A stretch of DNA of 64,000 bases from an uncultured Chloroflexia bacterium (GCA_963774265.1 CAVZDU010000003.1:192001-256000), one strand, 5' to 3'; shown: positions 32,284 through 53,434, counted from the first letter of the stretch. Notes: generated by a model not told the origin, from the letters alone. Program-made: numbers and translations.

Positions 32284-33714
32284 ATGTCTGAAAATCAGCC
32301 TTCATCGAGCCGCCGATCGTTGTGGTCGGGGCTCATACTCGGTGGATTGCTCACCGTTTTCGTAGCGATGTTAGCCTACGTCGCTTACCTGTTTCTTTCC
32401 TGGGGGCAGGTTGCTGCACAGCAAGCCCCCGAGATGGCGCCGCTTGCCTTGCCGCAGATCATGCGACCGGCAGCTGAGAACGCAGTCCAACTGACCTCAG
32501 CCGAGTCGTCCCTCTTCCGGCCGGCGGGCCGCGCTCAGCAGGATGAGCCGGCTGCAGCCGTAAAACGCACGACCATCTTGCTGTTGGGCGTTGACGCACG
32601 CCCCGGGCAGACGATCGCACGCACGGATTCCATTATCTTGCTGACTTTCAACCCCGAAACAAGTGCAGCGGGCATGTTGTCGATCCCTCGCGACTTGAAG
32701 GTGCGGCCGACTGCACTGAATCGCGACATGAAGATCACCTCGGTGTTCCCCGCAGGTGAGGCGGCAGGCTATCCCGGCGGGGGCCCGGCGCTGCTTGAAG
32801 AGACGATCAGTGAGCTGCTGGGCTACTCGGTCGACTACTACGTAGTAGTCAACTTCGACGGTTTCAAAGACATTATAGACCTGATTGGCGGCGTCGAGAT
32901 CACTGTGCCGTACGAGATCTATGACGACAAGTACCCCGATGAGAAATACGGCTATCTACCGCCAGTGCATTTCCTTCCTGGCAAGCAACTCATGGACGGT
33001 GACACGGCGCTGAAATATGCGCGCACCCGCCATGCCGACAACGACTACGCGCGCGCCGGGCGCCAACAACAGGTCATCATGGCCATCAAGGATAAAGTGA
33101 CGGCGCAAGGACAGATGGCGGCCCTGCTGCCGCGGCTCCCGGGTCTGGCTGTGGCCATGGCCAACTCGGTTCAGACGGATGTGTCGGTCGACAAGGCGAT
33201 TGGCCTGGCGCGTGCCATTGATAAGATGGATTTGAACAATATCGCGCGCGTCGTCATCGATCCGAAGATGGGCCGCGTCATACCGAATGACCCGGAGCTG
33301 GGCTACACGCTCGTGCCTGACCTGACGAAGGTGCGCGCGGCCGCGGATGCGATCTTCGCCGATGTTGCGGCGGGGCCATCCCCGGAAGAGGTGGCTCGCC
33401 AGACAATCCAGGCCGAGGCTGCACGCATCGTGCTGCTCAACGGTACGCAGGAGAAAGGTCTGGCCTCGAAACTGCAAGCCACGCTGATCACCCAGGGCTA
33501 CAACGTTACCACCGTAGGCAACGCGGATAATGCGGATTACGGCGAGTCCGAGCTGGTGATCCATGGGGAGATTAAGACAGCCACCGTGAATGCCCTGATG
33601 AATTGGTTTGGTATCACGGAGGATCGGGTGAGCACCCAGCCGGCTGCGGAGGACAGGGATATCACCGTAGTCGTCGGTGACGATCAAGTGCAGGCGCAAC
33701 TGGCGAAACCCTGA
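32284..33714 (+). CDS. LCP (LytR-CpsA-Psr) family protein with LytR C-terminal domain
   Basis: ILLLGVD, RTDSIIL, SIPRDL, ALKYARTRH, DYARAGRQQ, VLLNGT. Confidence 0.92.
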   Translation: MSENQPSSSRRSLWSGLILGGLLTVFVAMLAYVAYLFLSWGQVAAQQAPEMAPLALPQIMRPAAENAVQLTSAESSLFRPAGRAQQDEPAAAVKRTTILLLGVDARPGQTIARTDSIILLTFNPETSAAGMLSIPRDLKVRPTALNRDMKITSVFPAGEAAGYPGGGPALLEETISELLGYSVDYYVVVNFDGFKDIIDLIGGVEITVPYEIYDDKYPDEKYGYLPPVHFLPGKQLMDGDTALKYARTRHADNDYARAGRQQQVIMAIKDKVTAQGQMAALLPRLPGLAVAMANSVQTDVSVDKAIGLARAIDKMDLNNIARVVIDPKMGRVIPNDPELGYTLVPDLTKVRAAADAIFADVAAGPSPEEVARQTIQAEAARIVLLNGTQEKGLASKLQATLITQGYNVTTVGNADNADYGESELVIHGEIKTATVNALMNWFGITEDRVSTQPAAEDRDITVVVGDDQVQAQLAKP

Positions 33715-33782
33715 GCCCCGGGCGAGCATATGACAGCCGTCATTGCGGTTTGCACCCTCGTGTGGTAACACGAGGGTACTCG

Positions 33783-34160
33783 ATGTTAAAGGCTGGTGTC
33801 ATGCAGCTTCGCGATGTGCTGGCGGCCCTGGGAGCTCGCCCCATCTCCCCTAATGTCAATCTGTGCACCGAAGTACGAGCAGGGTTTGCGGCTGACTTGA
33901 TGAGCGACGCGCTTCGTTATGATTTGTCAGAGGCCCTGCTGGTGTCAGGGTTGGCGAATCCCCAAGTGGTGCGCACGGCCGAGATGGCCGATGTGGCCGC
34001 CATCCTGATGGTGCGGGGCAAAACTCCGACCCCGGAAACCTTAGAACTGGCCGCGGAAATCGGCGTTCCCTTTTTGGGCACCGAATTGACGATGTTTGAA
34101 TCGTGTGGTCGTCTGTACGCCGCCGGCCTGCCAGCCTGCAAGGCTTTTCACGGCAACTAA
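33783..34160 (+). CDS. DRTGG domain protein
   Basis: AADLMSDAL, GLANPQVVRTAEMAD, VRGK, MFESCGRLY. Confidence 0.85.
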   Translation: MLKAGVMQLRDVLAALGARPISPNVNLCTEVRAGFAADLMSDALRYDLSEALLVSGLANPQVVRTAEMADVAAILMVRGKTPTPETLELAAEIGVPFLGTELTMFESCGRLYAAGLPACKAFHGN

Positions 34161-35113
34161 TGAGCCCATCTGAAGTATTCAAAGCCCAGGAGTTAGTCTA
34201 CGAGCTAAAGATCGGCGATATCATGACGCGCCGATTGATCAGCGTGACCCCTGAGACAACGATGCGCGAGGTGAAGCAGGTGCTGCGCGACCATCGCATC
34301 TCTGGCCTGCCGGTCATGCGAGACAATCACCTTGTGGGCATCGTCAGCATCGAGAATGTGATTCAGGCCCTCGAGCTGAATGACCTGGACGCAGATGTCA
34401 ATCGTTACATGTCGAGCCTGGTTCACACCATCGGTGAGAGCGAGTCCGCGGTCCGCGCGCTGAACGTTTTTTCGCGCGCTGCAGTCGGCCGGCTGCCTGT
34501 GGTGGACGAAGAGAGGCGGCTGGTTGGCATCCTGACGCCGGGAGATATTACGCGCGGGGTGTTGCGCGCGTTGGAGCGGGCGTATCACGAGGAAGAGATC
34601 CGCAAATATCGCGTGCGTCATCTTTTCGAGGACGTCAGCTCGGACCGGACGAGTCTGATCCTGCGCTATGATATCGCCTTGCGAGACTTTACCCGTGCTG
34701 GCCGCGCATCCAGCCAACTCAAGCAGACGCTTGTCCGGCTGGGTGTGGATCCCCGCATCGTCCGCCGCGTAGCGATCGTGTCCTACGAAGCCGAGATGAA
34801 CATCGTCATTCACAGCGACAGCGGCGGCAACATCGTGGCGGAAATCAACCCTGACCTGATCGCGATCCTGGCGTATGACTCGGGCCCCGGTATTGAAGAC
34901 GTGCAGCGCGCCATGCAGCCCGGCTGGAGCACTGCGCCGGACTGGATTCGTGAGATGGGCTTTGGCGCGGGCATGGGGCTGGTCAACATCAAAGCGACGG
35001 CCGATGAAATGTACCTTGATTCATGGCCGCACAAGAGCACCAAACTGGAAGCTGTCATCTATCTGAAACCCGGGGAGGGTAAGACAAGCAATGAGACTGA
35101 CGGAAGTAGTTGA
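34160..35113 (+). CDS. CBS-pair plus HATPase (anti-sigma/Ser kinase-like) fusion
   Basis: Two CBS repeats (ISGLPV, VGRLPVVD), then YEAEMN, DSGPGI and GFGAGMGL. Confidence 0.85.
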   Translation: MSPSEVFKAQELVYELKIGDIMTRRLISVTPETTMREVKQVLRDHRISGLPVMRDNHLVGIVSIENVIQALELNDLDADVNRYMSSLVHTIGESESAVRALNVFSRAAVGRLPVVDEERRLVGILTPGDITRGVLRALERAYHEEEIRKYRVRHLFEDVSSDRTSLILRYDIALRDFTRAGRASSQLKQTLVRLGVDPRIVRRVAIVSYEAEMNIVIHSDSGGNIVAEINPDLIAILAYDSGPGIEDVQRAMQPGWSTAPDWIREMGFGAGMGLVNIKATADEMYLDSWPHKSTKLEAVIYLKPGEGKTSNETDGSS

Positions 35114-35426
35114 CGCGCTGGATCTGCGCGTGGCCTCAGGAGCCAGCCATCTCGACGTCGAAGTGACCGGTGGTTACACCTCCGATCTGTTGAGTTGCGC
35201 GATGGCAGGTGCTGCCCAGGGCAGCCTGTGGATCACTCTGCAGGCGCATCTGAACGTGGTGGCCGTGGCAAGCCTGAACGAGCTGGCCGGTGTGATTGTG
35301 ACCGAGGGGAAGCCGGTGTCGAATGAGACAGCCCTCAAGGCTGAGGAAGAAGGCGTGGCGCTACTCTTGACCCCGCTGACTTCGTACCAGGTTGCGGGGC
35401 GGCTCTGGGATCTGGGGGTCAGGTGA
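35091..35426 (+). CDS. DRTGG/HPr-kinase N-terminal-like protein
   Basis: GGYTSDLLS, WITLQAHLNVVAVA. Confidence 0.8.
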   Translation: MRLTEVVDALDLRVASGASHLDVEVTGGYTSDLLSCAMAGAAQGSLWITLQAHLNVVAVASLNELAGVIVTEGKPVSNETALKAEEEGVALLLTPLTSYQVAGRLWDLGVR

Positions 35427-36151
35427 TCTACGCTGATCTGCACCTGCACACCGTCCTGTCGCCGTGCGCCGAGGTGGAGATGGTGCCGCCGCTCATCGTC
35501 CGGCGGGCGCTGGCGCTGGGGTTGGGGCTTCTTGCGGTCACCGACCATAACGCGGCAGCGAATTGCGCGGCAATGATGGCCGCGGCAGAGGGCACAGGGC
35601 TGGTGGTCCTGCCCGGGATGGAGATGCAGACCGCGGAGGAGGTGCATTTGCTGTGCCTCTTCGAGACGCTCGAACAGGCACTCACGTGGCAGGGTACGGT
35701 CTTCGACCATCTGCCGGACGCGCCGAACCCGGAGGATCTTCTGGGCGGGCAGTATGTGGTGGACCGCGAGGGCGACTATGTGCGGACCGAGGACCGGCTG
35801 CTCGCGACGTCGACTGATTTGGCGCTGGAAGAGGCGATTCGTCGGGTGACAGCCCTTGGGGGGCTGGCTATCCCCGCGCACATCGACCGGCCATCCTTTA
35901 GCCTGCTCTCGAACCTGGGATTTGTGCCGCCGGCCCTCCCTGCACCGGCGCTGGAGATCTTCCGCCTGACGGAGCCCGCCGAATTGCTCGCAAAGCATCC
36001 GGCCGTTGGCCGGTATCCCCTGGTCAGGAATAGCGACGCGCACCAGTTGAGCGATATGCGGCGCGGGATTGCGTTTGAGGCGGAGACCGCCTCATTCGGA
36101 ACGTTGCAGGCTGCATTGGCGAGACCGGACGGTGTCTCCCTGCAAGCCTGA
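35423..36151 (+). CDS. PHP domain phosphoesterase
   Basis: DLHLHT, TDHN, EEVH, PAHIDR, NSDAH. Confidence 0.88.
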   Translation: MIYADLHLHTVLSPCAEVEMVPPLIVRRALALGLGLLAVTDHNAAANCAAMMAAAEGTGLVVLPGMEMQTAEEVHLLCLFETLEQALTWQGTVFDHLPDAPNPEDLLGGQYVVDREGDYVRTEDRLLATSTDLALEEAIRRVTALGGLAIPAHIDRPSFSLLSNLGFVPPALPAPALEIFRLTEPAELLAKHPAVGRYPLVRNSDAHQLSDMRRGIAFEAETASFGTLQAALARPDGVSLQA

Positions 36152-36198
36152 CGGTCCAGCGAGGTATGACATGCGTCATTTTACGTTATGGCGCGATA

Positions 36199-36237
36199 TG
36201 TTATACTGCACAATTGCCTACGTGGCATATTTCACGA
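36199..36237 (+). promoter_or_regulatory. Extended -10 and candidate Rex operator upstream of nuoE
   Basis: TGTTATACT at 36199-36207; ACGTGGCATATTTCACGA at 36220-36237 resembles TTGTGAA-N4-TTCACAA. Confidence 0.4.
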
Positions 36238-36253
36238 TCGGACGATCCTGCTC

Positions 36254-36727
36254 ATGATTGAAGACCTCACGACTCTCGATTTCGCTCCCCTGGACAAGGT
36301 CCTTGAGGAGTACGCCGGCCAGAAGGGCGCAGTCATCCCTATCCTGCAGCATGTTCAGGATGCCTACGGATTCCTGCCCAAGGAGGTCCTGGGCGAGATC
36401 TCGAAGCGGACGGGCATCCCGGTGAGCCGGCTGATCGGGGTGGCGACTTTCTACGCCCAATTCCGGCTGAACCGCTGCGGTAAGCACCTGATTCGCATCT
36501 GTGATGGCACCGCCTGTCATGTCCGCGGCGCGTCCAAGTGCATCGAGACAGTGGAGAAACAACTTGGTGTGCCCGCCGGCGGCACATCTGATGATTACGA
36601 GTACACGATGGAAATCGTCTACTGCCTGGGTTCCTGCGGCCTGGCGCCAGTGGCGGTGATTGACGACAAGGTGTACGGCCGTTTGACGCCGAACGTCCTC
36701 GTACAGCAACTCGAGACGCTTGGATAG
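36254..36727 (+). CDS. NuoE/HydC-like [2Fe-2S] subunit
   Basis: VATFYAQF, CDGTACHVRG, CLGSCGLAP. Confidence 0.92.
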   Translation: MIEDLTTLDFAPLDKVLEEYAGQKGAVIPILQHVQDAYGFLPKEVLGEISKRTGIPVSRLIGVATFYAQFRLNRCGKHLIRICDGTACHVRGASKCIETVEKQLGVPAGGTSDDYEYTMEIVYCLGSCGLAPVAVIDDKVYGRLTPNVLVQQLETLG

Positions 36728-36889
36728 TAGGGGAGTTGCGCGCCCGTAGGGGTGTTGCATGCCCGTAGAGACGTTGCATGCCCGTAGGGGCGTTGCATGC
36801 CCGTAGAGACGTTGACATGCCCGTAGAGACGTTGACATGCCCGTAGAGACGTTGCATGCCCGTAGAGACGTTGCATGCAACGTCTCTAC
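36727..36889. repeat. Seven tandem 19-20 bp REP half-sites ending in a complete 28-bp palindrome
   Basis: Units GTAGRGRYGTTG(A)CATGCCC x7 (the first is degenerate), then GTAGAGACGTTGCATGCAACGTCTCTAC at 36862-36889, identical to 569-596. Confidence 0.92.
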
Positions 36890-36902
36890 AGAGTCATAGA
36901 TT

Positions 36903-37478
36903 ATGCTGGAGCTGGCTCTGCACATACTGGATATCCTGCAAAATACGGTCGAGGCCGGCGCAACTCGCGTCAGACTCAGCATCGTGGAGGATCAGCCCGC
37001 AGACCGCCTGACTATCACCGTGACCGACAATGGACGCGGAATGGACGAACAAACCGCGCGGCGGGTGCTGAACCCCTTCTACACCACCCGCACAACTCGT
37101 CACGTGGGCCTTGGATTGCCGCTGTTTGCCGCCGCAGCGGAGGGAGCCGGCGGAGGACTGAGCATCCGCTCGCAGCCAGGACAGGGGACTACGGTCGAAA
37201 CCACGTTTCAACTGAGTCACCCAGACCGGCAGCCGCTCGGTGATATGGCGGGGACGCTGCTGGCATTTCTTCTGACCGGGCAGGCGCCGGATCTCGTGTA
37301 TGCGCATCACGTGCTCACCAACCAGGTTTCTGCCAGCAACCTGGTTAGTGAGAACGAATTTTCATTTGACATCGCCGACATTCGTGCCGAACTTGACGGC
37401 GTGCCACTGAATCAACCCCGGGTGGCGCAGTGGCTGGCGGAGTTCTTGGCCGAAGGCGAAGCAGAACTCATTCATTGA
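36903..37478 (+). CDS. HATPase_c (histidine kinase-like ATPase) protein
   Basis: ELALHILDILQN, DNGRGM, PFYTTRTTRHVGLGL, HPDRQPLG. Confidence 0.88.
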   Translation: MLELALHILDILQNTVEAGATRVRLSIVEDQPADRLTITVTDNGRGMDEQTARRVLNPFYTTRTTRHVGLGLPLFAAAAEGAGGGLSIRSQPGQGTTVETTFQLSHPDRQPLGDMAGTLLAFLLTGQAPDLVYAHHVLTNQVSASNLVSENEFSFDIADIRAELDGVPLNQPRVAQWLAEFLAEGEAELIH

Positions 37479-37488
37479 GGTAAACCAT

Positions 37489-37863
37489 ATGCCCAAGCTC
37501 AAGTCCCTGGATGACCTGAGGCGCATCCGTGAGGACGCGCAACAAACCCTGAAGACACGACTGGACACCGGTACGACCATCATCGTGGGCATGGGCACCT
37601 GCGGCATCGCGGCCGGTGCGCGCGACACGATGCACGCCATCCTGGATGAGCTGGCCCAGCGCAATATTGACGCCCACGTGACCACCGTCGGCTGCATCGG
37701 CCAGTGCGTCAAGGAGCCATTGGTCGATATCGAACAGGCAGGCCAGCCGCGCATCACGTATGCCAACGTCCGGCCTGATATGGTGTCACGCCTGATCGAA
37801 GAGCATCTGATAAATGGCCAGCCGGTCGAAGAGTGGATCGTCGGCCGTATGGATAAGAATTGA
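37489..37863 (+). CDS. Thioredoxin-like [2Fe-2S] ferredoxin (HydD-like)
   Basis: VGMGTCGIAAGA, VGCIGQCVKEP. Confidence 0.88.
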   Translation: MPKLKSLDDLRRIREDAQQTLKTRLDTGTTIIVGMGTCGIAAGARDTMHAILDELAQRNIDAHVTTVGCIGQCVKEPLVDIEQAGQPRITYANVRPDMVSRLIEEHLINGQPVEEWIVGRMDKN

Positions 37864-37877
37864 CAGGGGAGCAGCCA

Positions 37878-38345
37878 ATGGAACAATTCAACAGCATCGA
37901 GGCCGTGATCAATCGGGCGATCGAGCTCGAGGTCGAGGCCGTGACCATGTACAGCAATGCAGCACAGACGATCAAGGATGACGCCGTGCGCCAGCGTCTG
38001 CTGGAGATGGCCGCGCAGGAGCGGGGACACAAGACCAAGCTGGAGGATATCCTCGCGGGCAACGTGCGCTGGGCCATCCGGCGCTCCAAGGCCGAGCCGG
38101 TGACAGACCTGCGCCTGAGCGATCACCTGGTCGGCGGGTCGCTGGATCCCAAGGCCGACTACCAGGACGTGCTCCTCTTTGCCGCGCAGCGCGAGAAGGC
38201 CGCACACGAATTCTACAAGGCAATGGGTGAGATGATCGACGACAAGCTCGTCCAGAACCTCTTCGAGATGCTGGCCACCGAAGAACTGCGCCATAAGTAC
38301 GTGCTTGAAAAGACGTACGAAGAGGTTGTTTACAAGGACATCTAA
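37878..38345 (+). CDS. Ferritin-like (rubrerythrin family) di-iron protein
   Basis: E..A...Y / ERGH and E..A..FY / ELRH paired motifs; no rubredoxin Cys. Confidence 0.8.
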   Translation: MEQFNSIEAVINRAIELEVEAVTMYSNAAQTIKDDAVRQRLLEMAAQERGHKTKLEDILAGNVRWAIRRSKAEPVTDLRLSDHLVGGSLDPKADYQDVLLFAAQREKAAHEFYKAMGEMIDDKLVQNLFEMLATEELRHKYVLEKTYEEVVYKDI

Positions 38346-38347
38346 GC

Positions 38348-41300
38348 ATGGATAGCAACCTGTTTACGAACTCAGCTACCGAGGGCCCGCGCATCGATCC
38401 ACTGCTCCGCGCCGAAGTGCTGATCTGCGGCGGCACGGGCTGCCACTCCTCCAACTCGCATGAGGTCACGATGGCGATGGAGGCCGAGGTGGCCCGGCGT
38501 GGGCTGGCCGGGGAAGTACGCGTCGTGCCCACCGGCTGCCGCGGCTTCTGCTCCATGGGTCCGGTCATGATGATCTACCCCGAGGGCATCCTCTACTGCC
38601 AGGTGCAGCCCAGCGACGTGCCCGAGATCGTCGAGGAGACGCTGCTCAAGGGCCGCCAGGTCAAGCGCCTCACCTATGAGGAACCGATCCAGCACAAGGC
38701 GCTGCCGTTTTACCACGACATTCCGTTCTACGGCAAACAGATCCGCATCGCGCTCCGCAACTGCGGCCTGATCAACCCGGAGAGCATCGACGAGTACATC
38801 GCACACGATGGCTATGCTGCGCTGGGCAAGGTCTTGACCAGCATGTCGCCGGATGATGTGCTGCGCGAGATGAAGGATTCGGGGCTGCGCGGCCGCGGCG
38901 GCGCGGGCTTCCTGACCGGCCTGAAGTGGGAGTTCGCGCGGCGCAGCGCAGAACTTCCCCAAGTATGTCGATCTGCAACGCCGACGAGGGCGACCCGGGC
39001 GCGTTCATGGATCGCTCGATCCTGGAAGGTGACCCGCACAGCCTGATGGAAGGCATGACCATCGCCGGCTACGCGATCGGCGCCGCGCGAGGGGTACATC
39101 TACTGCCGCGCCGAATACCCGCTGGCAATCGCACCGCCTGAAGACGGCCATCGCGCAGGCGCACGAGTATGGCCTGCTTGGGCGAGAACATCCTGGGCAG
39201 TCGACTTCTCCTTCGATCTGAAGGTCAAAGAGGGCGCAGGCGCCTTCGTCTGCGGCGAAGAAACTGCGCTGATGGCCTCCATCGAGGGCAAGCGCGGCGA
39301 GCCGCGGCCCCGCCCGCCGTTCCCTGCCGTCGCCGGCCTCTGGAACAAGCCCTCCAACGTCAACAACGTCAAGAGCTACGCCATGACGCCCCAGATCATC
39401 CTGAAGGGCGCGGCATGGTTCAAGGCCATCGGCCCGGAGAAGTCGCCCGGCACCGCGATCTTCGCCCTGACCGGCAAGATCAACAACACCGGCCTGATCG
39501 AAGTGCCGATGGGCATCCCCCTGGGCGAGATCATCTTCGACGTGGGCGGCGGCATCCCCAAGGGCAAGCCGTTCAAGGCCGTGCAGACGGGCGGCCCGCT
39601 GGGCGGCTGTCTGCCGGCTTCGGCGCTGAACACGCCGGTCGACTTCGACTCACTGACCGCTGCGGGCGCGACCATGGGCTCGGGCGGCATGATCGTCGTC
39701 GACGACGACACCTGCATGGTGGAGTTCGCCAAGTACTTCCTGCAGTTCGCCACCGCCGAGTCGTGCGGCAAGTGCGTGCCCTGCCGGGTCGGCGGCATGC
39801 GGCTGCTGGAGGTCCTCGACGCGGATCACCGAGGGCAAGGGCACGCGCGCGGACGTGGACACGATCAAGTACATCTCGGCCAACATGCAGGCGGCCTCGC
39901 TGTGCTCGCTGGGCCAGCTGACCCCCGGCCCGGTGATGTCGGCCATCCGCTTCTTCGAGCAGGAGTTCCTCGACCACATCGACGACAAGAACTGCCCGGC
40001 CGGCCAATGCAAGCCGCTGGTGCGCGCCAAGTGCATCAACGCCTGCCCGGCCGGCGTCGAGAGCCCGGCCTACCTGGCGCTGGTGGCCCAGGGCCGCTAC
40101 GCCGAGGGGCTGGAAATCCATCGCCAGCGCAACCCGTTCGCCCTCGATCTGCGGCCGCGTCTGCCCGGCGTTCTGCGAGCAGAAGTGCCGCCGCGGCGAG
40201 ATCGACGAGCCGATCAGCATCCGCCTGGTCAAGCGCTTCATGGCCGATCACGAGGTCGCAGGCCCCGTGGACCCCCGAGCACATCGAAGCCTGCCAAGCG
40301 GTCAGAAGGTCGCCGTTGTGGGCGCCGGCCCGGCCGGCCTGACCGCGGCGCTGCGCCTGGCGCAACGGGGCTACCGGGTGACGTGGTCTTCGAGAAGCTG
40401 CCTATCCCGGGCGGCATGATGACGGTCGGCATCCCGGAGTACCGCCTGCCCACGCGAGCCGCTCTTCGCCGAGATCGAGAACATCCAGCGTGCCGGCGTG
40501 GAGATCCGCTGCAACCAGGCGCTGGGCAGCGACTTCACGCTCGACGACCTGTTCGAACGAGACGGCTACAACGCCGTGGTGCTGGCCATCGGCGCGCACA
40601 GCAGCCGCAAGCTGGGCATCCCTGGCGAGGAGAAGGCCGGCGTCGTCCACGGCACCGACTTCCTGCGCGAGGTCGGCCTGATCAACCGGTGGCGGCGGCG
40701 ACGGCCAGCACTCATGCCGGCAGTCGCCGGCAAGCGTGTGGCCGTGGTCGGCGGCGGCGACGTGGCCCTCGACGCGGCACGCACCGCCTGGCGGCTGGGC
40801 GCCAACGAGGTCCACGTCATCTACCGGCGCCAGCGCGCAGGACATGCCCGCCTATGCCGAGGAAGTGCACGCGGCGATACGACGAAGGCATCCAGTTCCA
40901 CTTCCTGGCCAACCCGGTGCAGGTGCTGGGCGACGGTCACGTGACCGGCGTCGTGGTGCAGCGGCAGCGGCTGGGCGATTTCGACAACGGCGGCCGGCGG
41001 CGGCCCGTGCCTGCGGAGGGCGACGACTTCACGCTGGATGTCGACGTGTTGATCCCGGCCATCGGCCAGACCACCGACACCGTCGTGGATGCAGCAGGCC
41101 GGCATCAAAGTCAGCCGATCCAGCACGTTCGACGTCGGTGACGCGTACAACACGTCGCGGGCGCGGCGTCTTCGCCGCTGGCGACGCCGTGAGCGGGCCG
41201 GCGACGGTGATCGAGGCGGTGGCCCAGGGCAACCTGGTGGCCGTCGCGGTCGATCACTGGCTCAAGACGGCCCAGTATGACGAAGCCGCGCTACGAAACC

Positions 41301-41540
41301 GAGCGGCCCGACATCGCCCAGTACTTCAGCCTGGATGACTATGCCAATGCCCACCGGCCGCATGTGCCCGAATTGGCGCTGACCGAGCGGCACGGCACCT
41401 TCCGGGAAGTGGAATTGGGCTTCGACGAACACACGGCGCGCGAGGAAGCCAAGCGCTGCCTGCGCTGTGACCTGGAGTGGCTGGACTTCATGAAGTTGCC
41501 GAAGCCCGAGGCAATAGAAGCCGTAGAAAGGAGCCTGTGA
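38348..41540 (+). CDS. NuoF/HydB-like FMN subunit fused to a GltD-like FAD/NAD(P)H module (frameshifted)
   Basis: N-terminal 2Fe-2S (ICGGTGC...GCRGFC), [44 protein letters not shown], then [46 protein letters not shown]. The NuoF-to-GltD junction is in one frame (ORF 39855..41141). Confidence 0.85.
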
Positions 41541-41544
41541 CCCA

Positions 41545-44439
41545 ATGGCGGTTGTAAACATTACCATCAATGGGATCAAACTCCAGGCACAAATGGGCCA
41601 GACCGTCTACCAGGCGGCCGCGGCCGCCGGGATCGACATCCCGGTGCTGTGCCACCATCCGGCGCTGCCGCCGGAGGGCGCGTGCCGCGTCTGCCTGGTG
41701 GAGATCGAGAAGCAGCGCAACCTCCAGCCGGCCTGCACCTTCCCCGTCACCGAGGGCATGGTCGTCCACACCCATTCGCCCAAGGTGCTGCGAGGCGCGC
41801 AAGTTCGTGCTGGAGCTGATCATCTCCGACCATCCGCTGGACTGCATGACGTGCGAAGCGACGGGCGACTGCCGGCTTGCAGGACCTGGCCTACGAGTAC
41901 GAGGTCAAGGGGGACGAGTACGCCGGCGGCGTGCAGCACGACTATCCCATCGACGACCCGAACCCGTTCATCCAGGTGGATCGCAACAAGTGCATCCTCT
42001 GCCGGCGGTGCGTGCGGGCGTGCAACTACATCAACGGCGTCGAGGCGATCAGCGATCGTCTACCGCGGGTTCAACGCGCAAGATCGCGTTCGGCATGGAC
42101 TCCACGATGGAGGACAGCCCGTGCGAGTTCTGCGGGAGCTGCGTCGAGGTGTGCCCGATCGGCCGCGCTCTGGCCCAAGATGAGCATGGGCAAGGGCCGC
42201 GCCTGGCAGCTCAAGACAGGTGGAGACGATCTGCTCCTATTGCGGCGTCGGCTGCCAGCTGAATCTGCACGTGCGCGGACAACGAGATCGTCAAGGTGAC
42301 GGGCGCCGACGGCCCGTCCAATCACGGCTTCTACCTGCGTCAAGGGCCGCTTCGGTTACGATTACGTCAATCACTCGGATCGGCTGAGCAAGCCGCTGGT
42401 GCGGCGGTATCTGCTGGACGGCGGGACGAAGCCCACACGTCCACAGACGCAGGACGATGGTCACGATCGTCAGTCGCCCCCAATCCAGCGATCGGAATTC
42501 GTCGAGACCGACTGGGACACAGGCGCTCGACCTCGTCGCCCGCAAATTCGCCGAGACCAAGCAGACGCACGGCGGCGATGCGTTCGCGGCGCTCTGGCTT
42601 CGGCCCGCTGCACCAACGAGGAGAACTTCCTCATCATGAAGCTGACCCGACAGGTGATGCAGACGCACAATATCGACCATTGTGCGCGGCTCTGACACAG
42701 CGCTACCGTCACCGGTCTGGTGACAACGCTTCGGCTCTGGGGCCATGACCAACCCGTTCGAGGATATCGCCAAGAACGCGCAAGTGCCTCTTCATCATCG
42801 GCTCGAACACCACCGAGCAGCATCCGGTGTTCGGCATGCAACTGCGCCAGGCGGTCAAGCAGCGCGGGCGTGCCGCTCATCGTGGCCGATCCGCGGCGCA
42901 TCCCGATCACGCAATACGCGACGATCCATCTGCGCCACAAGCCCGGCACCGATACGGCACTGCTCAACGGCCTGATGCATGTGTTGATCACCGAGGACCT
43001 GTACGATCACGACTTCGTGGCGAACCGCACCGAGGGCTTCGAGGATCTCAAGGCCAAGATGGCCGAGTACACGCCCGAGCGCGTGGCCTGGATCTGCGGC
43101 GTGAAGGCGGACGACATCCGCAAGGCGGCGCGGCTGATGGCTGCGCATCGGCCCGGCGCGCTGATGTATGCGATGGGCATCACCCAGCACACCAGCGGCC
43201 ACGGCAACGTGATGAGCTGCGCCAACCTGCAGATGCTGCTGGGCAACATGGGCGTGTCGGGCGGCGGCGTCAATCCGCTGCGCGGCCAATCCAACGTGCA
43301 GGGCGCATGCGACATGGGCGGCCTGCCCAACTACTACACCGGCTACCAGAACGTGGCGCTCGAAGCCAGCCGCAAGAAATTCGAGGCGGCCTGGGGCGTC
43401 GCTGCCGCCGGTGGATAAGCCGGGCCTGACCGTGGTCGAGATGATGAACGCGGCCGAGCACGGGCCAGATCAAGGCGATGTACGTCGTCGGCGAGAATCC
43501 GATGCTCTCCGACCCCGACCTGCAACCACGTGCGCCACTGCTTGCAGTCGCTGGATTTCCTGGTGGTGCAGGATCATCTTCATGACCGAAACCGCGCAAC
43601 TGGCCGATGTGGTGCTGCCGGGCTCGTCGTTCGCGGAGAAGGACGGCACCTTCACCAACAGCGAGCGGCGCGTGCAGCTGGTGCGCCGCGCTCTGAATCC
43701 GCTGGGCGAAACTCGGCCCGATTGGGAGATCATCGCCGAACTGGGCCAGCGTACAGCGGCGCTCGAGGCCGGCGCCCTGAGAGCGCCGCAGCGACGGTCG
43801 CCGCGGCGCCGCACGGCTCGTGGGATTACATGAACCCGGCCGAGATCATGGACGAGATCGCCGACGCTGACGCCGAGCTACGGCGGCATCCGCCATGCAC
43901 CGGCTGGAGAAGCTGGCAGGCCTGCAATGGCCGTGCCCCGACGAGAAGCATCCCGGCACGCCGATCCTGCACGTCGGCAAGTTCACGCGCGGGCTGGGCA
44001 AGCTTCCAGCCGATGGACTTCCTGCCGCCGGTCGAACTGCCGGACGAAGACATATCCGCTGCTGCTGACCACCGGCCGCGTGCTGTATCATTATCACACC
44101 GGCACGCTGACCCGGCGCTCCCAGGGGCTGGCGGCCATCTATCCGGAAGGGCTTGATCGAGATGCACCCGGAGGACGCGGCACGGTTGGATGTGGTCGAA
44201 CGGCGAGATGGTGCAGGTCGCCAGCCGCCGCGGCCAGGTGAACGTCAAAGACCGATGTCACCGAGAAGATCCAGCCGGGCGTGGTCTTCATGACCTTCCA
44301 CTTCGCCGAGAGCGCGGCCAACTTCCTCACCAACCCGGCGCTCGACCCGGTGGCGAAGATCCCGGAGTTCAAGGCGTGCGCGGTGAAGGTGAGCAAGCTT
44401 CCCGCCGTGAGTGCGAGACGTGCTGAGGCAGACGAGTAG
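41545..44439 (+). CDS. fdhF: Selenocysteine-containing formate dehydrogenase alpha subunit with NuoG-like Fe-S N-terminus (frameshifted)
   Basis: [89 protein letters not shown]. Confidence 0.9.
42693..42730 (+). promoter_or_regulatory. Sec UGA codon and bacterial SECIS hairpin
   Basis: TGA at 42693-42695; AGCG...GTCACC-GGTCT-GGTGAC...CGCT stem-loop with a G-led apical loop starting 19 nt after the UGA. Confidence 0.8.
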
Positions 44440-44490
44440 ACGAGTAGACGAGTGACCTTGGACGACTCGTTCTCGTTGTACGTTCGTCTG
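44430..44490. repeat. Octamer tandem repeat with an imperfect inverted partner
   Basis: (AGACGAGT)x3 at 44430-44453, overlapping the fdh stop codon, followed by ACTCGTTCTCGTTGTACGTTCGTCT. Confidence 0.6.
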
Positions 44491-44540
44491 TCGATCATTT
44501 GTCACGACATATCTCATTCTGACAAGGGAGGCATCATCGC

Positions 44541-45433
44541 ATGGCAAACGGAGAAATCAACATCGATGCCTTGATGCCGCCGCAGATGGCCGCCAAGGCC
44601 GAGGCGATCGGCATCAAGAAGGCGAACCTGGACTTCTGGACGATGTTCGCGCTGGCGATCCTGGCCGGCGCATTCATTGGCGCAGGGGCGCATCTTCGCC
44701 ACCACGGTATGGACGGGCGGCGGCCGGCGCTGCCCTACGGCGTGAACCGCCTGCTGGGCGGCCTGGTCTTCTGCCTCGGCCTTATCCTGGTCGTCGTGGC
44801 CGGCGCCGAGCTGTTCACCGGCAACAACCTGATCGTCATGGCGCTGGGCGAGCCGGAAAGGTCAGCACCGGCAAGTTGCTGCGCAACTGGGGCATCGTCT
44901 ATGCTGGCAACTTCGTCGGCGCGCTTGATCACCGCGGTCATCATGCTGTTGGCGCCAGCAGTACACGTTCGGCAAGGGCAGCGTCGGGCCTGACCGCGCT
45001 GAACATCGCCAATGCCAAAGTCGACCCTGGACTCCCGTCCAGGCGTTCTTCCTGGGCATCATGTGTAACGCGCTGGTGTGCATGGCCGTCTGGCTGTGCT
45101 ACAGCGCCCGCAGCACCACCGACAAGATCCTGGCGATCATCTTCCCGATCAGCGCGTTCGTGGCGGCGGGCTTCGAGCACAGCATCGCCAACATGTACTT
45201 CATCCCGATCGGGCTGTTGATCAAGCAGTTTGCGCCGGCATCCTTCTGGGCCGCTGATGCGTTGGCGAAGGCCACCCCAGCCGCCATCACGATTGATTCG
45301 TTTGCCAAGCTGACCTGGGGCAACTTCTTCCTCAACAACCTGATTCCGGTGACGATCGGCAACATCGTCGGCGGCGCAGGGCTGGTGGGCGGTGGTGTAC
45401 TGGTTCGCCTATCTGCGGACGAAGAAATCCTGA
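44541..45433 (+). CDS. Formate/nitrite transporter (FdhC/FocA family; frameshifted)
   Basis: LAILAGAFI, GAELFTGN, GIMCNALVC, GFEHSIANM, VTIGNIVGG. Confidence 0.92.
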
Positions 45434-45459
45434 CGCGCGAACTGAGCGGTGCACTACAC

Positions 45460-45497
45460 AAAAGAGGGCGAAGCGATCACTCGCTTCGCCCTTGCTT
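45460..45497. terminator. Probable bidirectional terminator
   Basis: AGGGCGAAGCGA-TCAC-TCGCTTCGCCCT between convergent genes. Confidence 0.7.
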
Positions 45498-48160: not shown

Positions 48161-48691
48161 TTGACAACCATTTCCGTATCAACAGTTTCCCAGCGCATCA
48201 CAATGCGCATCAACGGTGAGCGGCGCGAGTTCGAGGTCGGACGCGATCTCCTGCCCACGACCACCCTCTCGGCGTTCTTGCGGGAGCGGCTCGGCTACAC
48301 CGGCCTGAAGATCAGTTGTGACGAAGGCGCCTGCGGCGCGTGCACGATCATCATGGACGGCAAGGCGGTCCTGTCGTGCATGCTGCTGGCCGTGGAAGCG
48401 GACGGCCATGACCTGCTGACCATCGAAGGCCTGCCGGACGACGATCCGGTGATCGAGGCCTTCGCCGAGCAGTGCGAGCCGGGCCACGGCACCGCGCTGC
48501 AGTGCGGCTACTGCACCCCCGGCTTTGTCATGACGGCCCGCGCCCTGCTCAACGAGAATCCCTCGCCGACCCTGGACGAGGTGAAGGAAGCGCTCTCCGG
48601 CAATCTCTGCCGCTGCGGCTGCTACGCGGGCATCGCCATGGCGGTCAGGCATGCTGCCGAGAAGATCGCAGCGAGAGGAGGACGGGCATGA
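48161..48691 (+). CDS. Xanthine dehydrogenase family 2x[2Fe-2S] small subunit
   Basis: CDEGACGACT, QCGYCTPG, NLCRC. Confidence 0.92.
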   Translation: MTTISVSTVSQRITMRINGERREFEVGRDLLPTTTLSAFLRERLGYTGLKISCDEGACGACTIIMDGKAVLSCMLLAVEADGHDLLTIEGLPDDDPVIEAFAEQCEPGHGTALQCGYCTPGFVMTARALLNENPSPTLDEVKEALSGNLCRCGCYAGIAMAVRHAAEKIAARGGRA

Positions 48692-51046
48692 GCGCACCCT
48701 ACAAACCCCGTGTCCCGCGCCAGTTCGTCGGCGGCTATCGCCCGCGCATCGACGCGGTCGAAAAGGCGCACGGCCGCGCCCCCTACGCCGACGACATGAT
48801 CTCCGAGCGCAACTACCCCGGTCTGCTCCATGCGCGGGTGCTGCGCAGCCCTTATCCCCGCGCCAGGATCAAGCACCTCGACACCACCAAGGCCGCGGCG
48901 CTGCCGGGCGTCAAGGCCATCCTGACCTACCAGGACCCGGAGGTCGCGCGCCTCAAGCCGACCAACGCCGGCTGGACCGACGCGGTCGACACGGTCAGCT
49001 ACGACAAGATGATGTGGCGCAAATTCCGCGACCGCCGCGTGCTGGGCGACTACGCCGACCTGGGCCGGCGACGAGGTGGGCGTCGCGATCGCCGCGGAGA
49101 GCGAGCAGATCGCGGAGCAGGCGCTGCGGCTGGTCGAGGTCGAGTGGGAGCAGCTGCCCTTCGTGCTCGATCCGCTCGCGGCGATGCAGCCCGGCGCGCC
49201 GGTCATCCACCCGCAGATCGCCGAGCACAACGTGCTCCCGCCCGATCCGGTCGGCGGTCCGGATGTCTTCCTGAACAAGGGCGATGTGGAGCAGGGCTTC
49301 GCCGCCGCGGATGTCGTCCTCGAGATGGACACCAGCCACCACAACCCGACGCAAGGCTCCCTCGATCCCTGGTGCTGCGTGGCCGAGTGGCAAGACGGAC
49401 CGGCTGACCGTTGTCTCCAATTCCTACGCGGCCGACCAGACCCGCATGCACGTCAGCCAGATGCTGGAGCTGCCGATCCACAAGGTGCGGGTCATCAGCA
49501 AGTACGTGGGCGGGCAGTTCGGCCGGGGCGACACCGGCGATCAGCCGTTCTTCCTCTTCACCGCGCTGCTGGCGAAGAAGGCCGGGCGGCCCGTCAAGTT
49601 CAAGCACACGCGGCGGGACAGCTTCCACGACACCCGGCAGGCGCGCGCTCTACCACTGCAAGGTGGGCGCCACGGCCGACGGCACGATCACCGCGCTCCA
49701 TTTCAAGTCCATCGGCGACATCGGCGCGCACGCCGACCACTCGGTCTTCGCGCTGAAATTCGCCCCGGCCGAGATCTCGGAGGCCGCGCTGGCCCCGATT
49801 CCCAACATCAAGATGGAATCCTATGCCGTCTACACCAACCACATCCCCGGCTGCATGATGCGCGGGGTGGGCAATTCCCAGTTCAACTTCATCTTCGGCC
49901 GGATGATCGATGGCCTGGCCGAGCGGCTGGATATGGACCCGATCGAGCTGGCGATCAAGAACTTCGGGCACGAATGGGGCACCTGCCCGGATCAGAGCCT
50001 GACGGCGGTGCTGGAGACGGGCGCGCAGCGCATCGGCTGGGCCGAGAAGCGGCACAAGCCCGGCGCAGGCCCGCTCTACGAGGGCGTCAAGAGGCGCGGG
50101 GTGGGCTTCTCCCTGCATCCCGGCTGGCATGCCGAGTGGCAGGAAGAGCGCCGCGGGCAGGTGCAGGCGAAGATCACCCTCTACCCGGACGGCACGGTCA
50201 CGCTGGACGCGCCCACCGTGGAGACCGGCACCGGCTCGAACACCTGCAATGTGCTTGGCTGCGCCGAGGCGCTCGGCTTCCTGGGCGTCCGCCCGGAGGA
50301 CATCACCTGGGTCTCGACCGTGGACACCGATAGCGGCATGCGCGACTGCGTGCAGACCGACAGCGCCGTCTCCTTCCTGCAGTCCGAGGTGCTGGCGGTG
50401 GCGGCGCGAGGAGCTGAAGGAGAAGCTGCTCGCTCTCGCGGCCCCTGTCCTCGGGGTCCCGGCCGACCAGTTGACCATCGACCGGACGGCCAGATCATCG
50501 GGCCGGGGCGCAGCATCAGCGTGAAGGAGCTGCTGTGGCAGGGCGACCTGGTGCCGCTGTCGGTGATGGTGAGCCGGCGGCCCTCGAGCGAAGAAGACCG
50601 GCGTGCCGTACATCGCCAGTTTCGCCGAGGTGGAGGTGGACACCGGCACCGGCCGCACGCAGGTGCTCAAGCTGGTCATCATCAACGACTGTGGGACGGT
50701 CATGTACGCCTCCGGCGCGGAGGCCCAGCAGATCGGCGGCCAGGTCATGGCCATCGGCGAGGCGCTGACCGAGGAGATGATCTACGACCCGGTGCGCGGC
50801 GTGCCGCTGAACTTCAACTTCATCGACTACAAGATGCCGACCATCCTCGACATGCCGGCGATCGAGCCGGTGCTCCTGGAGGTGTGGCGGGGCGCGGGCG
50901 AGTATGGCGCGTGCGGCATCGGCGAAGGCACGCTGACCTGCACCCCACGGGCCATCGCCAACGCGGTCTACAACGCCATCGGCGCCCGGGTCGATGAAAT
51001 CCCCCTGACGCCGGAAAAAGTGCTCCGGGCCTTGGGCAAGATTTGA
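48688..51046 (+). CDS. Xanthine dehydrogenase family molybdopterin-binding large subunit (frameshifted)
   Basis: VLRSPYPRARI, VGGQFG, MRGVG, ETGTG, DYKMPT, GIGEG, AIANAVYNAIG. Confidence 0.88.
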
Positions 51047-51055
51047 GGTGACGCC

Positions 51056-53434
51056 ATGACACTCCAGCCTTTCAAGTACGTCCCGGCTGACTCGCTGCAG
51101 GCGGCAGAGGCGCTGCTGCAGGAACACGGCGAAGGGGCCGCGGTGATCGCGGGCGGCACCGATCTGCTCGGCGCGCTCAAGGATGCCATCCACGACGACC
51201 CCTCCGGAGCTCCTGATCGGCCTCAAGCCGCTGACGGATCTGCGCTACGTGAACGCCGATGCCCGACGGGGTGCGCATCGGCAGCCTCACCACGCTCGCC
51301 GAGATCGCGCAAACACCCGGTCATCCGGCAGACCTATCCGCTCCTCGCCGAGGCCGCGCGCAGCGTGGCCTCGCCGCAGATTCGCAACGTCGCGACCATC
51401 GCCGGCAACCTCTGCCAGGAGCCCCGCTGCTGGTACTACCGCAACCCCGACAACACCTTCGACTGCCTGCGCAAGGGCGGCAAGACGGTGCGACGCGTTG
51501 TTCGCCGAGAATCGCTACCACTCCATCTTCGGCGGCATGTGCGTCAGCGCCGCGCCGTGCGTCACCGGCTGCCCCATCCACAACGACATCCCCGCGTACA
51601 TGGCCAAGCTCCGCGCCGGCGAGCTCGACGAAGCGGTGGCGATCCTGCTGCGCACCAACCCGCTGCCGGCGATCACGGGCCGGGTCTGTCCGCACACCTG
51701 CGAGACGGACTGCAACCGGTTCGACTACGACGAGCCGGTGTCGATCCGCGACGTCGAGCGCTTCCTGGGCGACTATGCGCTGGAACACGCCGAGGACCTC
51801 TACCGGCCGCCCGCGGCGGAATCGGGCAAGCGGGTGGCGATCGTCGGCGCGGGCCCGGCCGGGCTGACCGCGGCCTACTTCCTGCGGCAGGCCGGGCATG
51901 ACGTGACGGTCTTCGACCAGATGCCCGAGGCCGGCGGCATGCTGACCTACAGCATCCCGGCCTACCGCCTGCCCAAGGACGTCATGGCGGCCCAGGTCCA
52001 CGCGCTCGAAGGCATGGGCATCCGCTTCGAGCTGGGCGCGGCCGCTCGGCAGCGACGGCGCTGTCGCTGGACGACCTCAGGGAGCGCTATCGAGAGCGTG
52101 TTCCTGGCGACCGGTCTCTGGAACGGGAAGACGCTCAGGCTGGAGAAGGGCGAGTTGCTCGACTCCGGCCTGAAATTCCTGATCGACGTCCAGGTCGGCG
52201 GCAGCGCGCAGCCGAGCGTGGGCGAGCGAGTGCTGGTGATCGGCGGCGGCAGCGTGGCGGTGGATGTGGCGCTCACCGCGCGGCGCCTCGGCGCGACCGA
52301 GGTGACGATGGCCTGCCTGGAGAGCCTGGAGACGATGCCGGCCATCCCCGAGGATGTCGAGCAGGCGCTGGAGGAAGGGATCACCATCCTGCCCTCGTGG
52401 GGACCCCAGCGCGTCGTGGAGCAGGACGGGAAGCTGACCGGCATGGAGCTGGTGCGCTGCACCTCGGTCTTCGACAAAGACGGGCGTTTCGCGCCGACCT
52501 TCGATCCCGCGGTCAAGACCATGGTCGAGGCGGACCAGATCCTGGTCGCCATCGGCCAGGCCGCCGATCTCTCGTATGCCGAGCCCGGGCTGCAAGACGG
52601 AGCGCGGGCTGCTCGTGGCCGACAAGGTGACCGGCGCGACGGCCATGCCGGGCGTCTTTGCGGGCGGCGACGTCACCGGCAGCTCCGCGACGATGGTGCA
52701 GGCGATGGCTTCGGGGCAAAGGGCCGCGGCATCCATCGACGCGTACTTCGCCCGCGTGCAGCCCGAACCTGCCCGCCCGAGCCACGTCCCGCTGGTCATC
52801 AACGAGGCTGCGCTGCCGGCCAGCCAGCGGGTCCATGCCCCGCGCCTGCCGGTGGATCAGCGCACCCTCCTCGCCGAAGACTGCGGCGACCCTGTCGCTC
52901 GACCTGCTGGAACGCGAGCCGACCCGCTGCGCCAACTGCGGCTGCGTGGCGGTCAGCGCCTCGGACCTCGCGCCGGCCCTCGTCGCGCTCCGCGCGACGG
53001 TGAAGACCACCCAGCGGCGCCTGCCGGCCGAGGATCTCTTCACCGCGGCCGAGAGCAAGACGACGGTCCTGGCGCCGGACGAGCTGATCGAGGAGATCGA
53101 GATCCCCGCGCCGCCGCCGGGGAGCCACCAGGCCTATCACAAGTTCCGCATCCGCAACGCGATCGACTTCCCCATCGTCGGCGTCGCCTTCTGCGCGGAC
53201 ATGCAGGAGGGCAGATTCCACGATGCGCGGGTCGTGCTCGGGGCGGTCGCGCCCGTCCCGTTGGCCGCGCGTGCGGTCGAGGCGCTGCTGGAGGGTCAGG
53301 CGCCGAGCGAGGCGTTGGCGCAGGAGGCCGCCAGCCTGGCGGTCAGGGACGCGCAGCCGCTCGCGCGGAACCGGCTCAAGGTGGAGGTGGTGAAGGCGCT
53401 GGTCAGGAAGGCGATCCTGGGCGCCGCGGGCTGA
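51056..53434 (+). CDS. XDH-family FAD subunit ([4Fe-4S] PaoB/HcrB type) with an internal GltD-like module (frameshifted)
   Basis: AGGTDL, ASPQIRNVATIAGNLCQEPRCWYYR; insert CVTGCP..TGRVCPHTCE, GAGPAG, GGGSVAVD, GVFAGGD; then CVAVSASDLAPAL and KFRIRNAIDF. Confidence 0.85.

Follow-up and report, generated by a model that had tools for sequence, protein, structure and literature searches.

A predicted selenocysteine formate dehydrogenase operon of the HydABC/Bfu type with a NuoF::GltD fusion subunit in an uncultured Anaerolineae bacterium

Introduction

Enzymes of the Bfu/HydABC family are central to anaerobic energy conservation, and the mechanism of their electron bifurcation is still debated. 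A natural variant that carries an NADPH/flavin adenine dinucleotide (FAD) module in place of the ferredoxin-reducing domain, and that occurs with several catalytic heads on one chassis, would offer a direct test of the role of the low-potential branch. Here we ask what enzyme is encoded by such a locus in an uncultured Anaerolineae bacterium. The locus occupies positions 33801–45433 on the + strand of a 64-kb stretch of DNA (G000:C3:192001-256000, hereafter the window), and an initial annotation had described it as a hydrogenase-type bifurcating operon chassis rebuilt around a selenocysteine (Sec) formate dehydrogenase (FDH). Should the predicted enzyme prove independent of ferredoxin, the way in which abundant fermenters in digesters, wetlands, and sediments are modelled to produce formate and H2 would have to be revised. 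To that description we add a within-genus exchange of FDH and [NiFe] heads on an orthologous chassis, class-wide counts of the architecture, and a very probable artefactual origin of the damage in this copy of the operon.

Predicted operon and its formate dehydrogenase

We compared the host metagenome-assembled genome (MAG; 5.5 Mb, 10 contigs, 84% complete, GC ~64%) with three genomes of the same genus, G002, G004, and G007, using the intact orthologs in G002 and G004 as references. Pfam searches of the window open reading frames (ORFs) gave the order DRTGG, CBS-kinase, DRTGG, PHP, NuoE, HATPase, [2Fe-2S] ferredoxin, di-iron ferritin-like protein, NuoF::GltD, Sec-FdhA, and FocA, all on the + strand (Table 1). 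Every element listed in the initial annotation was thereby matched, in the same order and direction, and its observation that no H-cluster or [NiFe] subunit is present held for all scanned ORFs of the window (0/26 with a Pfam match to either family). Its coordinates were correct to ~20 nt, because the operon probably begins with the ATG at 33801 and FocA ends at 45433. Intergenic distances are small, with overlaps or gaps of ≤36 nt except for 175 nt between the NuoE and HATPase genes and ~115 nt before FocA. We regard it as fairly probable, on the strength of gene content and order, that these 11 genes form one operon for a cytoplasmic Sec-dependent formate dehydrogenase/CO2 reductase of the HydABC/Bfu type.

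The last three genes have broken frames in the window, and their domain content was read from the G004 orthologs with Pfam and NCBIfam, which bore out the domains first assigned: a flavin mononucleotide (FMN)/NADH site, an FAD/NADPH-type GltD module, a Sec-FDH, and FocA. The G004 FdhA has 950 residues, contains Fer2_4, NuoG-type and Fer4 clusters, Molybdop_Fe4S4, Molybdopterin, and Molydop_binding, and scored 804.8 bits against the TIGR01591 Fdh-alpha model (cut-off 666.25). With its NuoG-like iron-sulfur N-terminus, FdhA itself is the predicted “BfuA” subunit. By its match to the NuoE equivalog NF005722 (141.2 bits for the G004 ortholog, cut-off 141), NuoE is the predicted BfuC. The G004 FocA narrowly passed TIGR04060 (290.7 bits, cut-off 290.1) and scored 268 bits against PF01226.

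An in-frame TGA followed by a His codon is conserved in FdhA of all three genomes compared (the window, G002, and G004). The host genome encodes Sec machinery, with selB (293 bits), selA (506 bits), and selD (382 bits) all over their cut-offs and a tRNA-Sec. Two further candidate selenoproteins were found in the host: a [NiFe] hydrogenase large subunit with one in-frame TGA (G000:C3:86307-87860), probably a [NiFeSe] enzyme, and selD itself, also with one in-frame TGA (C1:464620-465552).

The NuoF::GltD fusion

The feature that sets this locus apart is the subunit upstream of FdhA. The 1053-residue G004 fusion comprises 2Fe-2S_thioredx (residues 11–94, 32.6 bits), Complex1_51K (172–340, 152 bits), SLBB (22.7 bits, under the cut-off of 27), NADH_4Fe-4S (455–538, 95 bits), Fer4_20 (546–632, 80 bits), and Pyr_redox_2 (647–951, 131 bits). 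Its GltD half scored 450 bits against NF009410, below the cut-off of 516. Pfam found no Fer4-type ferredoxin domain, the BfuB domain (IPR017896) of clusters B3/B4, anywhere in these 1053 residues. In the window itself the fragment at 38348–39046 matches 2Fe-2S_thioredx, while the Pyr_redox_2 part of GltD went undetected by Pfam in the window fragments and was revealed by tblastn with the G004 ortholog and Pfam on that ortholog. The nearest named relative of the fusion gene is in a MAG labelled “Anaerolineae bacterium” (82% identical), and the host genome contains only this one NuoF::GltD gene.

The best Protein Data Bank (PDB) match of the NuoF half is HydB of the Acetomicrobium mobile NiFe-HydABCSL complex (7t2r_B, E 2e-239), with [FeFe] HydB proteins also close, and the four HydB alignments all stop ~50 residues before the HydB C-terminus (542/597, 548/599, 576/630, and 570/626). 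Those ~50 unaligned residues are the ferredoxin-like B3/B4 domain. For the GltD half the best matches are the NADPH modules of NfnA/StnC (9n5u_A, 9bov_A, 8oh5_C; E 1e-98 to 1e-110). Fer4_20 begins 8 residues past the end of NADH_4Fe-4S in G004, and the eight GltD cysteines (C544/549/557/561 and C596/600/604/608), which start 6 residues after the NuoF domain, are invariant. At the other end of the protein, Cys29, Cys61, and Cys65 of the N-terminal [2Fe-2S] domain, which Nqo1-type NuoF lacks, are at least 90% conserved among 21 sequences. The GltD half also contains a YRR...MPA stretch, whose arginines presumably select NADPH. These alignments show that a complete GltD/NfnB-type module, comprising two [4Fe-4S] clusters, FAD, and an NAD(P)H site, stands in place of the C-terminal ferredoxin-like 2x[4Fe-4S] domain of BfuB.

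Frame integrity of the window copy

Reading the window copy as a functional operon depends on the origin of its frameshifts. In a three-way alignment with G002 and G004, positions 38948–45459 contained 55 window-specific insertions of 1–2 nt, 3 longer insertions, and 2 one-nt deletions, with 0 indels associated with homopolymers. Positions 33700–38900 had zero events of 1–2 nt, and the eight upstream genes are intact. A phase-switch scan of GC content at third codon positions (GC3) was too noisy for locating frameshift patches, and gene-by-gene alignment to G004 was used instead. Frame-shifting insertions/deletions numbered 19/0 in NuoF::GltD, 25/2 in FdhA, and 7/1 in FocA, compared to 0/0, 0/0, and 1/1 in three control genes of the window.

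A true pseudo-operon, in which NuoF::GltD, FDH, and FocA were inactivated by frameshifts while the regulators stayed intact, would account for the concentration of 51 frame-shifting insertions and 3 deletions in three genes with 0 in the eight upstream genes, and would agree with the weaker third-position bias of FDH substitutions reported below. Yet bacterial gene decay is usually deletion-biased, and the 55:2 ratio of insertions to deletions runs the opposite way. Stops arising by substitution were also absent (0 in ~2300 codons), and nucleotide identity of the broken genes to G004 (81–82%) equals or exceeds that of the intact neighbors. The same type of patch occurs in unrelated genes of the window, at 1787–3350 (12/4) and 23772–24896 (6/0), with clean genes between and intact syntenic genes in G004, and the operon's own patch extends into the xanthine-dehydrogenase-like genes that follow, to ~51 kb. 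Frame-broken housekeeping genes elsewhere in the host MAG include selA and acsB. We therefore consider a pseudo-operon highly improbable.

The correction of indels suggested at the outset was made by reading the genes in the G004 frame. Neither NuoF::GltD (1053 codons) nor FocA then contains an internal stop, and FdhA has only the Sec TGA, at codon 380, with amino acid identities to G004 of 86%, 82%, and 83% for NuoF::GltD, FdhA, and FocA, respectively. Window-specific substitutions in NuoF::GltD are biased to third positions (24/22/91 for the three codon positions). Metagenome contigs of relatives from four wetland or soil samples lack single bases at 40145, 40453/40455, 42727, 42784, 42869, 43574, and 44001, each of which sits ≤7 nt from a window-specific insertion. 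It is thus very likely, judging from the pattern of changes, that the frameshifts are uncorrected long-read assembly errors and not gene decay, and the organism's own NuoF::GltD, FdhA, and FocA genes are most likely intact. As assembly errors, the broken frames mean that annotation pipelines will miss or mis-call the operon. Insertion patches affect ~15 kb of the 64-kb window in all, and the gene annotation of this MAG is therefore locally untrustworthy.

Comparison with known systems

By its subunit composition the locus belongs within the Bfu/HydABC family in the definition of Schut et al. 2022 (PMC9304861), but its BfuB lacks the ferredoxin-type C-terminal domain, which is among the features that define that subunit. 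The locus shares with the [NiFe]-HydABCSL complex of A. mobile (7t2r) and the [FeFe]-HydABC complexes (7q4v, 8a6t, 7p5h) a NuoE-type BfuC, a NuoF-type BfuB with [2Fe-2S], FMN, and [4Fe-4S], a BfuA-type NuoG-like N-terminus on the catalytic subunit, and the same DRTGG/CBS-kinase/PHP/HATPase/HydD cassette. It differs from them in that GltD replaces the ferredoxin-reducing B3/B4 domain and that the predicted third substrate is formate rather than H2.

As in the Fdh-Bfu Type 1 enzymes predicted in Carboxydothermus hydrogenoformans, the pterin domain is part of BfuA and a Sec/W or Mo FDH sits on a BfuBC core, but Fdh-Bfu enzymes are described with canonical BfuB and with ferredoxin and NAD+ as partners, whereas here BfuB is fused to GltD. 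The characterized Type 3 enzyme, HylABC-FdhF2 of Gottschalkia acidurici, has a separate FdhF2, whereas here FdhA would be BfuA (PMC9304861 for both types). StnABC/NfnABC (8oh5, 9bov, 9n5u; PMC10482914, PMC12018979) likewise place a GltD NADPH/FAD module and two [4Fe-4S] clusters on a BfuBC core. In those complexes, however, the mid-potential path is fed by a GltD inserted in BfuA, the ferredoxin-like domain is still present in BfuB, and the FDH-like domain has no catalytic activity, whereas here GltD lies at the BfuB C-terminus and FdhA passes an FDH equivalog model and keeps its Sec-His pair.

The soluble FdsABG(D) enzymes of Rhodobacter capsulatus and Cupriavidus (6tg9/6tga, 6vw7, 9wxb) have a similar catalytic part and NuoE-/NuoF-like partners, and non-bifurcating, NAD-dependent FdsA provides the closest solved structures to the catalytic part of FdhA (9wxb_B, 6tg9_A; E ~1e-225 to 1e-230). 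In contrast, FdsB matches the fusion far less well than HydB does (E 1e-116 vs 2e-239) and, in the account given in PMC9304861, is without the extra BfuB clusters. Fds enzymes also have Cys rather than Sec and are without the GltD module, the regulatory cassette, and FocA. Consistent with the initial annotation, which knew of no characterized complex of this composition, we found none, and no description of a NuoF/HydB::GltD fusion or of an FDH with one, in a literature search that included the accessible portions of PMC5736913, PMC7325909, PMC11406978, PMC6037941, and PMC6349859 and had most subscription journals outside its reach.

One chassis with several catalytic heads

The same chassis carries different catalytic heads within the genus. 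G007 has an orthologous cassette, from the regulators through NuoF::GltD (the fusion 84% identical to that of G004), followed by a 585-aa NuoG-like BfuA and the [NiFe] small and large subunits. A second cluster 14 kb away in G007 contains a divergent NuoE, NuoF::GltD (58%), and FDH (~55%). Cassettes of the NiFe type (BfuA with NiFe small and large subunits) were found in G007, G003, G016, G011, G019, and the named MAG L019, with a partial one in G006, and cassettes of the FDH type in G002, G004, G014, G025, G026, G028, and L021.

Across the class, a 230-aa probe spanning the NuoF-GltD junction was searched against an even sample of 201 genomes. It matched 80/201 genomes at E ≤ 1e-40, and by count of the matches listed the junction was spanned in 67, with partial matches in G000, G122, and G198. 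Downstream partners at the 60 fusion loci examined were FDH at 18, [NiFe] HydS/HydL at 19, and others at 9, with 14 loci cut by contig ends. HydS/HydL also lay within 7 kb of 2/18 FDH loci. At least three regulator classes stood upstream of 10/18 FDH loci and 14/19 NiFe loci. With FDH and NiFe heads about equally common (18 vs 19 of 60 loci), the direction of change implied by a hydrogenase chassis “rebuilt” around FDH is not borne out. A third type of head was seen at three loci (L175:10300-14365, L176:2301-6358, and L178:5335-9791), with a short BfuA (Fer2_4 and Fer4), an HdrA-like/MvhD fusion, and an FrhB-like protein.

The fusion is not confined to the class and was also present in MAGs labelled Smithella, Bacillota, Armatimonadota, Nitrospiraceae, Actinomycetota, and Dehalococcoidia. 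Protein database searches returned thousands of fusion candidates, and the FMN-domain family and Fer4_20 were both present in 113 of the 120 best clusters. The regulator cassette extends beyond the fusion as well, with at least three regulator classes at 37/72 loci for plain HydB from many phyla. Among 11 plain-HydB cassette loci sampled, 9 had [FeFe] HydA downstream and 2 had FDH and FocA. The initial annotation had stated that the order of regulators, NuoE, ferredoxin, and NuoF accompanies [FeFe]-hydrogenases of the HydABC type. That association holds at these plain-HydB loci, but the hydrogenase of the closest relatives of our locus is of the [NiFe] HydABCSL type. The two FDH cases (L024 and L030, from a Clostridiaceae MAG and an unclassified bacterium) combine a DRTGG/PHP/HATPase/HydD cassette with plain HydB lacking GltD, FDH, and FocA, and the end of their FDH ORFs near residue 352–361 is probably a Sec codon. 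The search for the same architecture in other genomes, proposed with the original description, thus found it recurring across the class and, without GltD, also in Firmicutes (L024, L030). FDH heads on hydrogenase chassis arose more than once, and Schut et al. 2022 argue for repeated origin of Fdh-Bfu enzymes generally (PMC9304861).

The N-terminus of FdhA bears on how heads are exchanged. Its first 60–80 residues, the [2Fe-2S] domain, are as similar to NiFe-type BfuA (72–95%) as to other FDHs. This pattern suggests either a head-swap junction after the [2Fe-2S] domain or constraint by the shared core, and it does not separate the two. In a comparison of L010:9201-9500 with L109:8801-9100 and L099:8611-8900, these residues were 85–95% identical to BfuA of a NiFe-type operon from another genus (G016), and identity beyond residue 100 was only 25–40%.

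The host genome also has clusters with NuoF (without GltD) and FDH-like or NuoG-like genes at C1:1120766-1125104 and C1:1298097-1302667, and two NuoE/NuoF/BfuA-like clusters on C5 and C8, for several Bfu-type modules in one organism.

Predicted electron flow and its alternatives

In Bfu enzymes, BfuA passes the electrons of the third substrate to cluster B1 and FMN, the site of NAD+ reduction, and the low-potential branch leads from NuoE cluster C1 through B3/B4 of BfuB to ferredoxin (PMC12018979). With the GltD clusters, FAD, and a nicotinamide site in place of the ferredoxin-like domain of HydB/BfuB, the enzyme is predicted to couple formate/CO2, NAD(H), and NADP(H). Formate electrons would enter at the Sec-Mo/W center, pass through the FdhA clusters to FMN, and reduce NAD+, and the second branch, on the side of the NuoE cluster, would end in FAD and NADP(H) instead of ferredoxin. 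The net reaction would be 2 formate + NAD+ + NADP+ <-> 2 CO2 + NADH + NADPH. Working as a CO2 reductase, the enzyme could use NADPH to pull the oxidation of NADH, and CO2 would then be reduced without ferredoxin as long as formate stays low. FocA would move formate, and the DRTGG/CBS-kinase/PHP/HATPase proteins would regulate the operon as in hydrogenase operons.

The standard potential of CO2/formate is ~-430 mV, and potentials in vivo are ~-280 mV for NAD and ~-380 mV for NADPH. With these values, NADH and NADPH could jointly reduce CO2 only at formate concentrations of tens of micromolar or less, a requirement that would fit a dedicated FocA. The host genome encodes formate-tetrahydrofolate ligase and acetyl-CoA synthase, and a search of it found no canonical pyruvate formate-lyase. 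Because the ligase and the synthase are present, a role as the CO2 reductase of the Wood-Ljungdahl pathway is as possible as one in interspecies formate transfer.

Extended to all fusion loci, the proposal is that BfuB::GltD defines a ferredoxin-independent class of flavin-based bifurcation/confurcation with NADP(H) as the low-potential partner, through which ~1/3 of Anaerolineae and members of several other phyla could make formate or H2 from NADH and NADPH on one jointly regulated chassis with swapped heads (FDH, [NiFe], and HdrA/FrhB-type). We offer this broader proposal tentatively, as one that could well prove wrong.

A simpler enzyme would be a dual-cofactor NAD(P)+-dependent FDH, in which GltD provides NADP(H) with a separate point of entry or exit and the two nicotinamide sites are energetically uncoupled. 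From formate at standard potential, the reductions of NAD+ and NADP+ are each exergonic, and coupling would therefore be unnecessary. The kinship of the FdhA catalytic part to non-bifurcating FdsA points the same way, as does Fdh3 of T. onnurineus, which is reported with a GltD-type NADP-binding subunit (PMC8965080). Such an enzyme fits poorly with the NuoF half, however, which retains the N-terminal [2Fe-2S] domain and is much nearer to HydB/BfuB (7t2r_B) than to FdsB (E 1e-116 to 1e-130). It also leaves aside the placement of GltD exactly at the end of the low-potential branch and the use of the same fusion subunit by bifurcating [NiFe] hydrogenases of the HydABCSL type. On balance we find this uncoupled enzyme doubtful.

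Ferredoxin might instead still be a substrate, if the GltD clusters lead to a free or HydD-like ferredoxin and the complex is an FDH joined to an Nfn-type transhydrogenase with four substrates (formate, NAD, NADP, and ferredoxin). In NfnSL, GltD/NfnL-type modules do use both clusters as a ferredoxin wire (PMC12018979, PMC5736913), and the operon has a conserved gene for a small [2Fe-2S] ferredoxin. That ferredoxin is not specific to the fusion, however, because it is also found in plain HydABC operons, and 6 residues separate the NuoF [4Fe-4S] domain from the eight GltD cysteines, for which reason the clusters would bridge the core and FAD rather than face outward. A four-substrate enzyme seems unlikely to us.

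Several points weigh against the predicted ferredoxin-independent, Sec-containing enzyme and the intactness of its genes. For NuoF::GltD enzymes, cofactor specificity, coupling, and independence of ferredoxin are all deduced from sequence, and a search for biochemical data on any such enzyme found none. The model has no position for the HydD-like ferredoxin or for the di-iron protein. The SECIS_3 match (selenocysteine insertion sequence) reached 32.2 bits (E 6e-4), below the Rfam gathering score of 63. Promoter-like sites lie inside the operon at 36180 and 37860, with a frequency not above that in shuffled sequences. Window-specific substitutions in FdhA are less biased to third positions (68/46/96) than those of G002 (33/21/131), which may reflect misalignment around indels or base-call errors, or some real relaxation. 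Finally, a search for a sequencing run containing the host strain found none, the best share of sampled words being 0.08, and it listed no RNA run.

Regulatory cassette and accessory genes

Table 1 Features of the predicted operon and its borders (window coordinates)
Feature	Position	Strand	Evidence
DRTGG-domain protein 1, first operon gene	33801..34160 (ORF 33750-34160)	+	Pfam DRTGG 20.3 bits, E 4.9e-4, below gathering score
2x CBS + HATPase_c_2 regulator (anti-sigma/kinase-like)	34103..35113	+	CBS 92.6 bits, HATPase_c_2 22.7 bits; 79% identical to G004
DRTGG-domain protein 2	35091..35426	+	Pfam DRTGG 24.2 bits; 83% identical to G004
PHP-domain phosphoesterase-like protein	35423..36151	+	Pfam PHP 28.7 bits
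NuoE/HydC/BfuC-type [2Fe-2S] subunit	36188..36727	+	Pfam 2Fe-2S_thioredx 157 bits
19-nt tandem repeat, 7.1 copies, NuoE-HATPase spacer	36742..36878		Tandem Repeats Finder (TRF)
Stand-alone HATPase_c protein, histidine-kinase-like ATPase	36903..37478	+	Pfam HATPase_c 64.9 bits
HydD-like thioredoxin-fold [2Fe-2S] ferredoxin	37489..37863	+	2Fe-2S_thioredx 20.3 bits, weak; 87% identical to G004
Di-iron ferritin/rubrerythrin-like protein	37878..38345 (ORF 37860-38345)	+	Rubrerythrin 49.9 bits, Ferritin_2
NuoF::GltD (BfuB::GltD) fusion gene, frames broken	38348..41540	+	Pfam fragments Complex1_51K, SLBB, NADH_4Fe-4S, Fer4_20; collinear with intact 1053-aa G004 ortholog
Sec formate dehydrogenase alpha, NuoG-like N-terminus (BfuA type 1), frames broken	41545..44426	+	Pfam fragments Fer2_4, NADH-G_4Fe-4S_3, Fer4, Molybdopterin, Molydop_binding
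Sec codon TGA (42693-42695) and SECIS-like hairpin	42690..42749	+	Context ARL-U-HS; Rfam SECIS_3
FocA-type formate channel, frames broken	44541..45433	+	Three Form_Nir_trans fragments
Palindromic GC-rich hairpin, 12-bp stem, directly after FocA	45465..45492		Terminator-like scan; minus-strand listing, stem palindromic

Counted from its ATG, DRTGG protein 1 is 84% identical to its G004 ortholog. A literature search on DRTGG proteins with hydrogenases turned up nothing useful. In the ferritin-like protein the di-iron motif is complete, with E18, E48-x-x-H51, E106, and E136-x-x-H139 invariant in 12 orthologs, and a weak NCBIfam match to PRK12775, which is annotated as a fusion of GltD with ferritin, gives a hint of an association between this protein and the GltD module.

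Expansion of the 19-nt repeat is specific to the host genome and shows in the three-way alignment as three window-only insertions (29, 49, and 24 nt). The unit also occurs in small arrays elsewhere (19 matches at ≤2 mismatches on 4 contigs, including window positions 582–660 on the minus strand, C1, C2, and C5) and looks like a dispersed repetitive extragenic palindromic (REP)-like repeat.

Operon borders and neighboring genes

The hairpin after FocA probably marks the end of the transcription unit. On the other side, a perfect palindrome with 10-bp arms (ACCCTCGTGT-GGTA-ACACGAGGGT) lies at 33755–33778, 23 nt 5' of the first ATG of the operon, and may serve either as an operator or to terminate transcription of the upstream LCP-family gene. 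Flanking genes are unrelated to the operon: the LCP-family gene upstream, and a PMT-like membrane protein, xanthine-dehydrogenase-family genes, and a separate GltD-like gene downstream. The xanthine-dehydrogenase/aldehyde-oxidase-family cluster (48161–53003) consists of a [2Fe-2S] subunit and a frame-broken Mo-binding subunit, and the GltD-like protein encoded after it has 606 aa with Fer4_20 and Pyr_redox_2.

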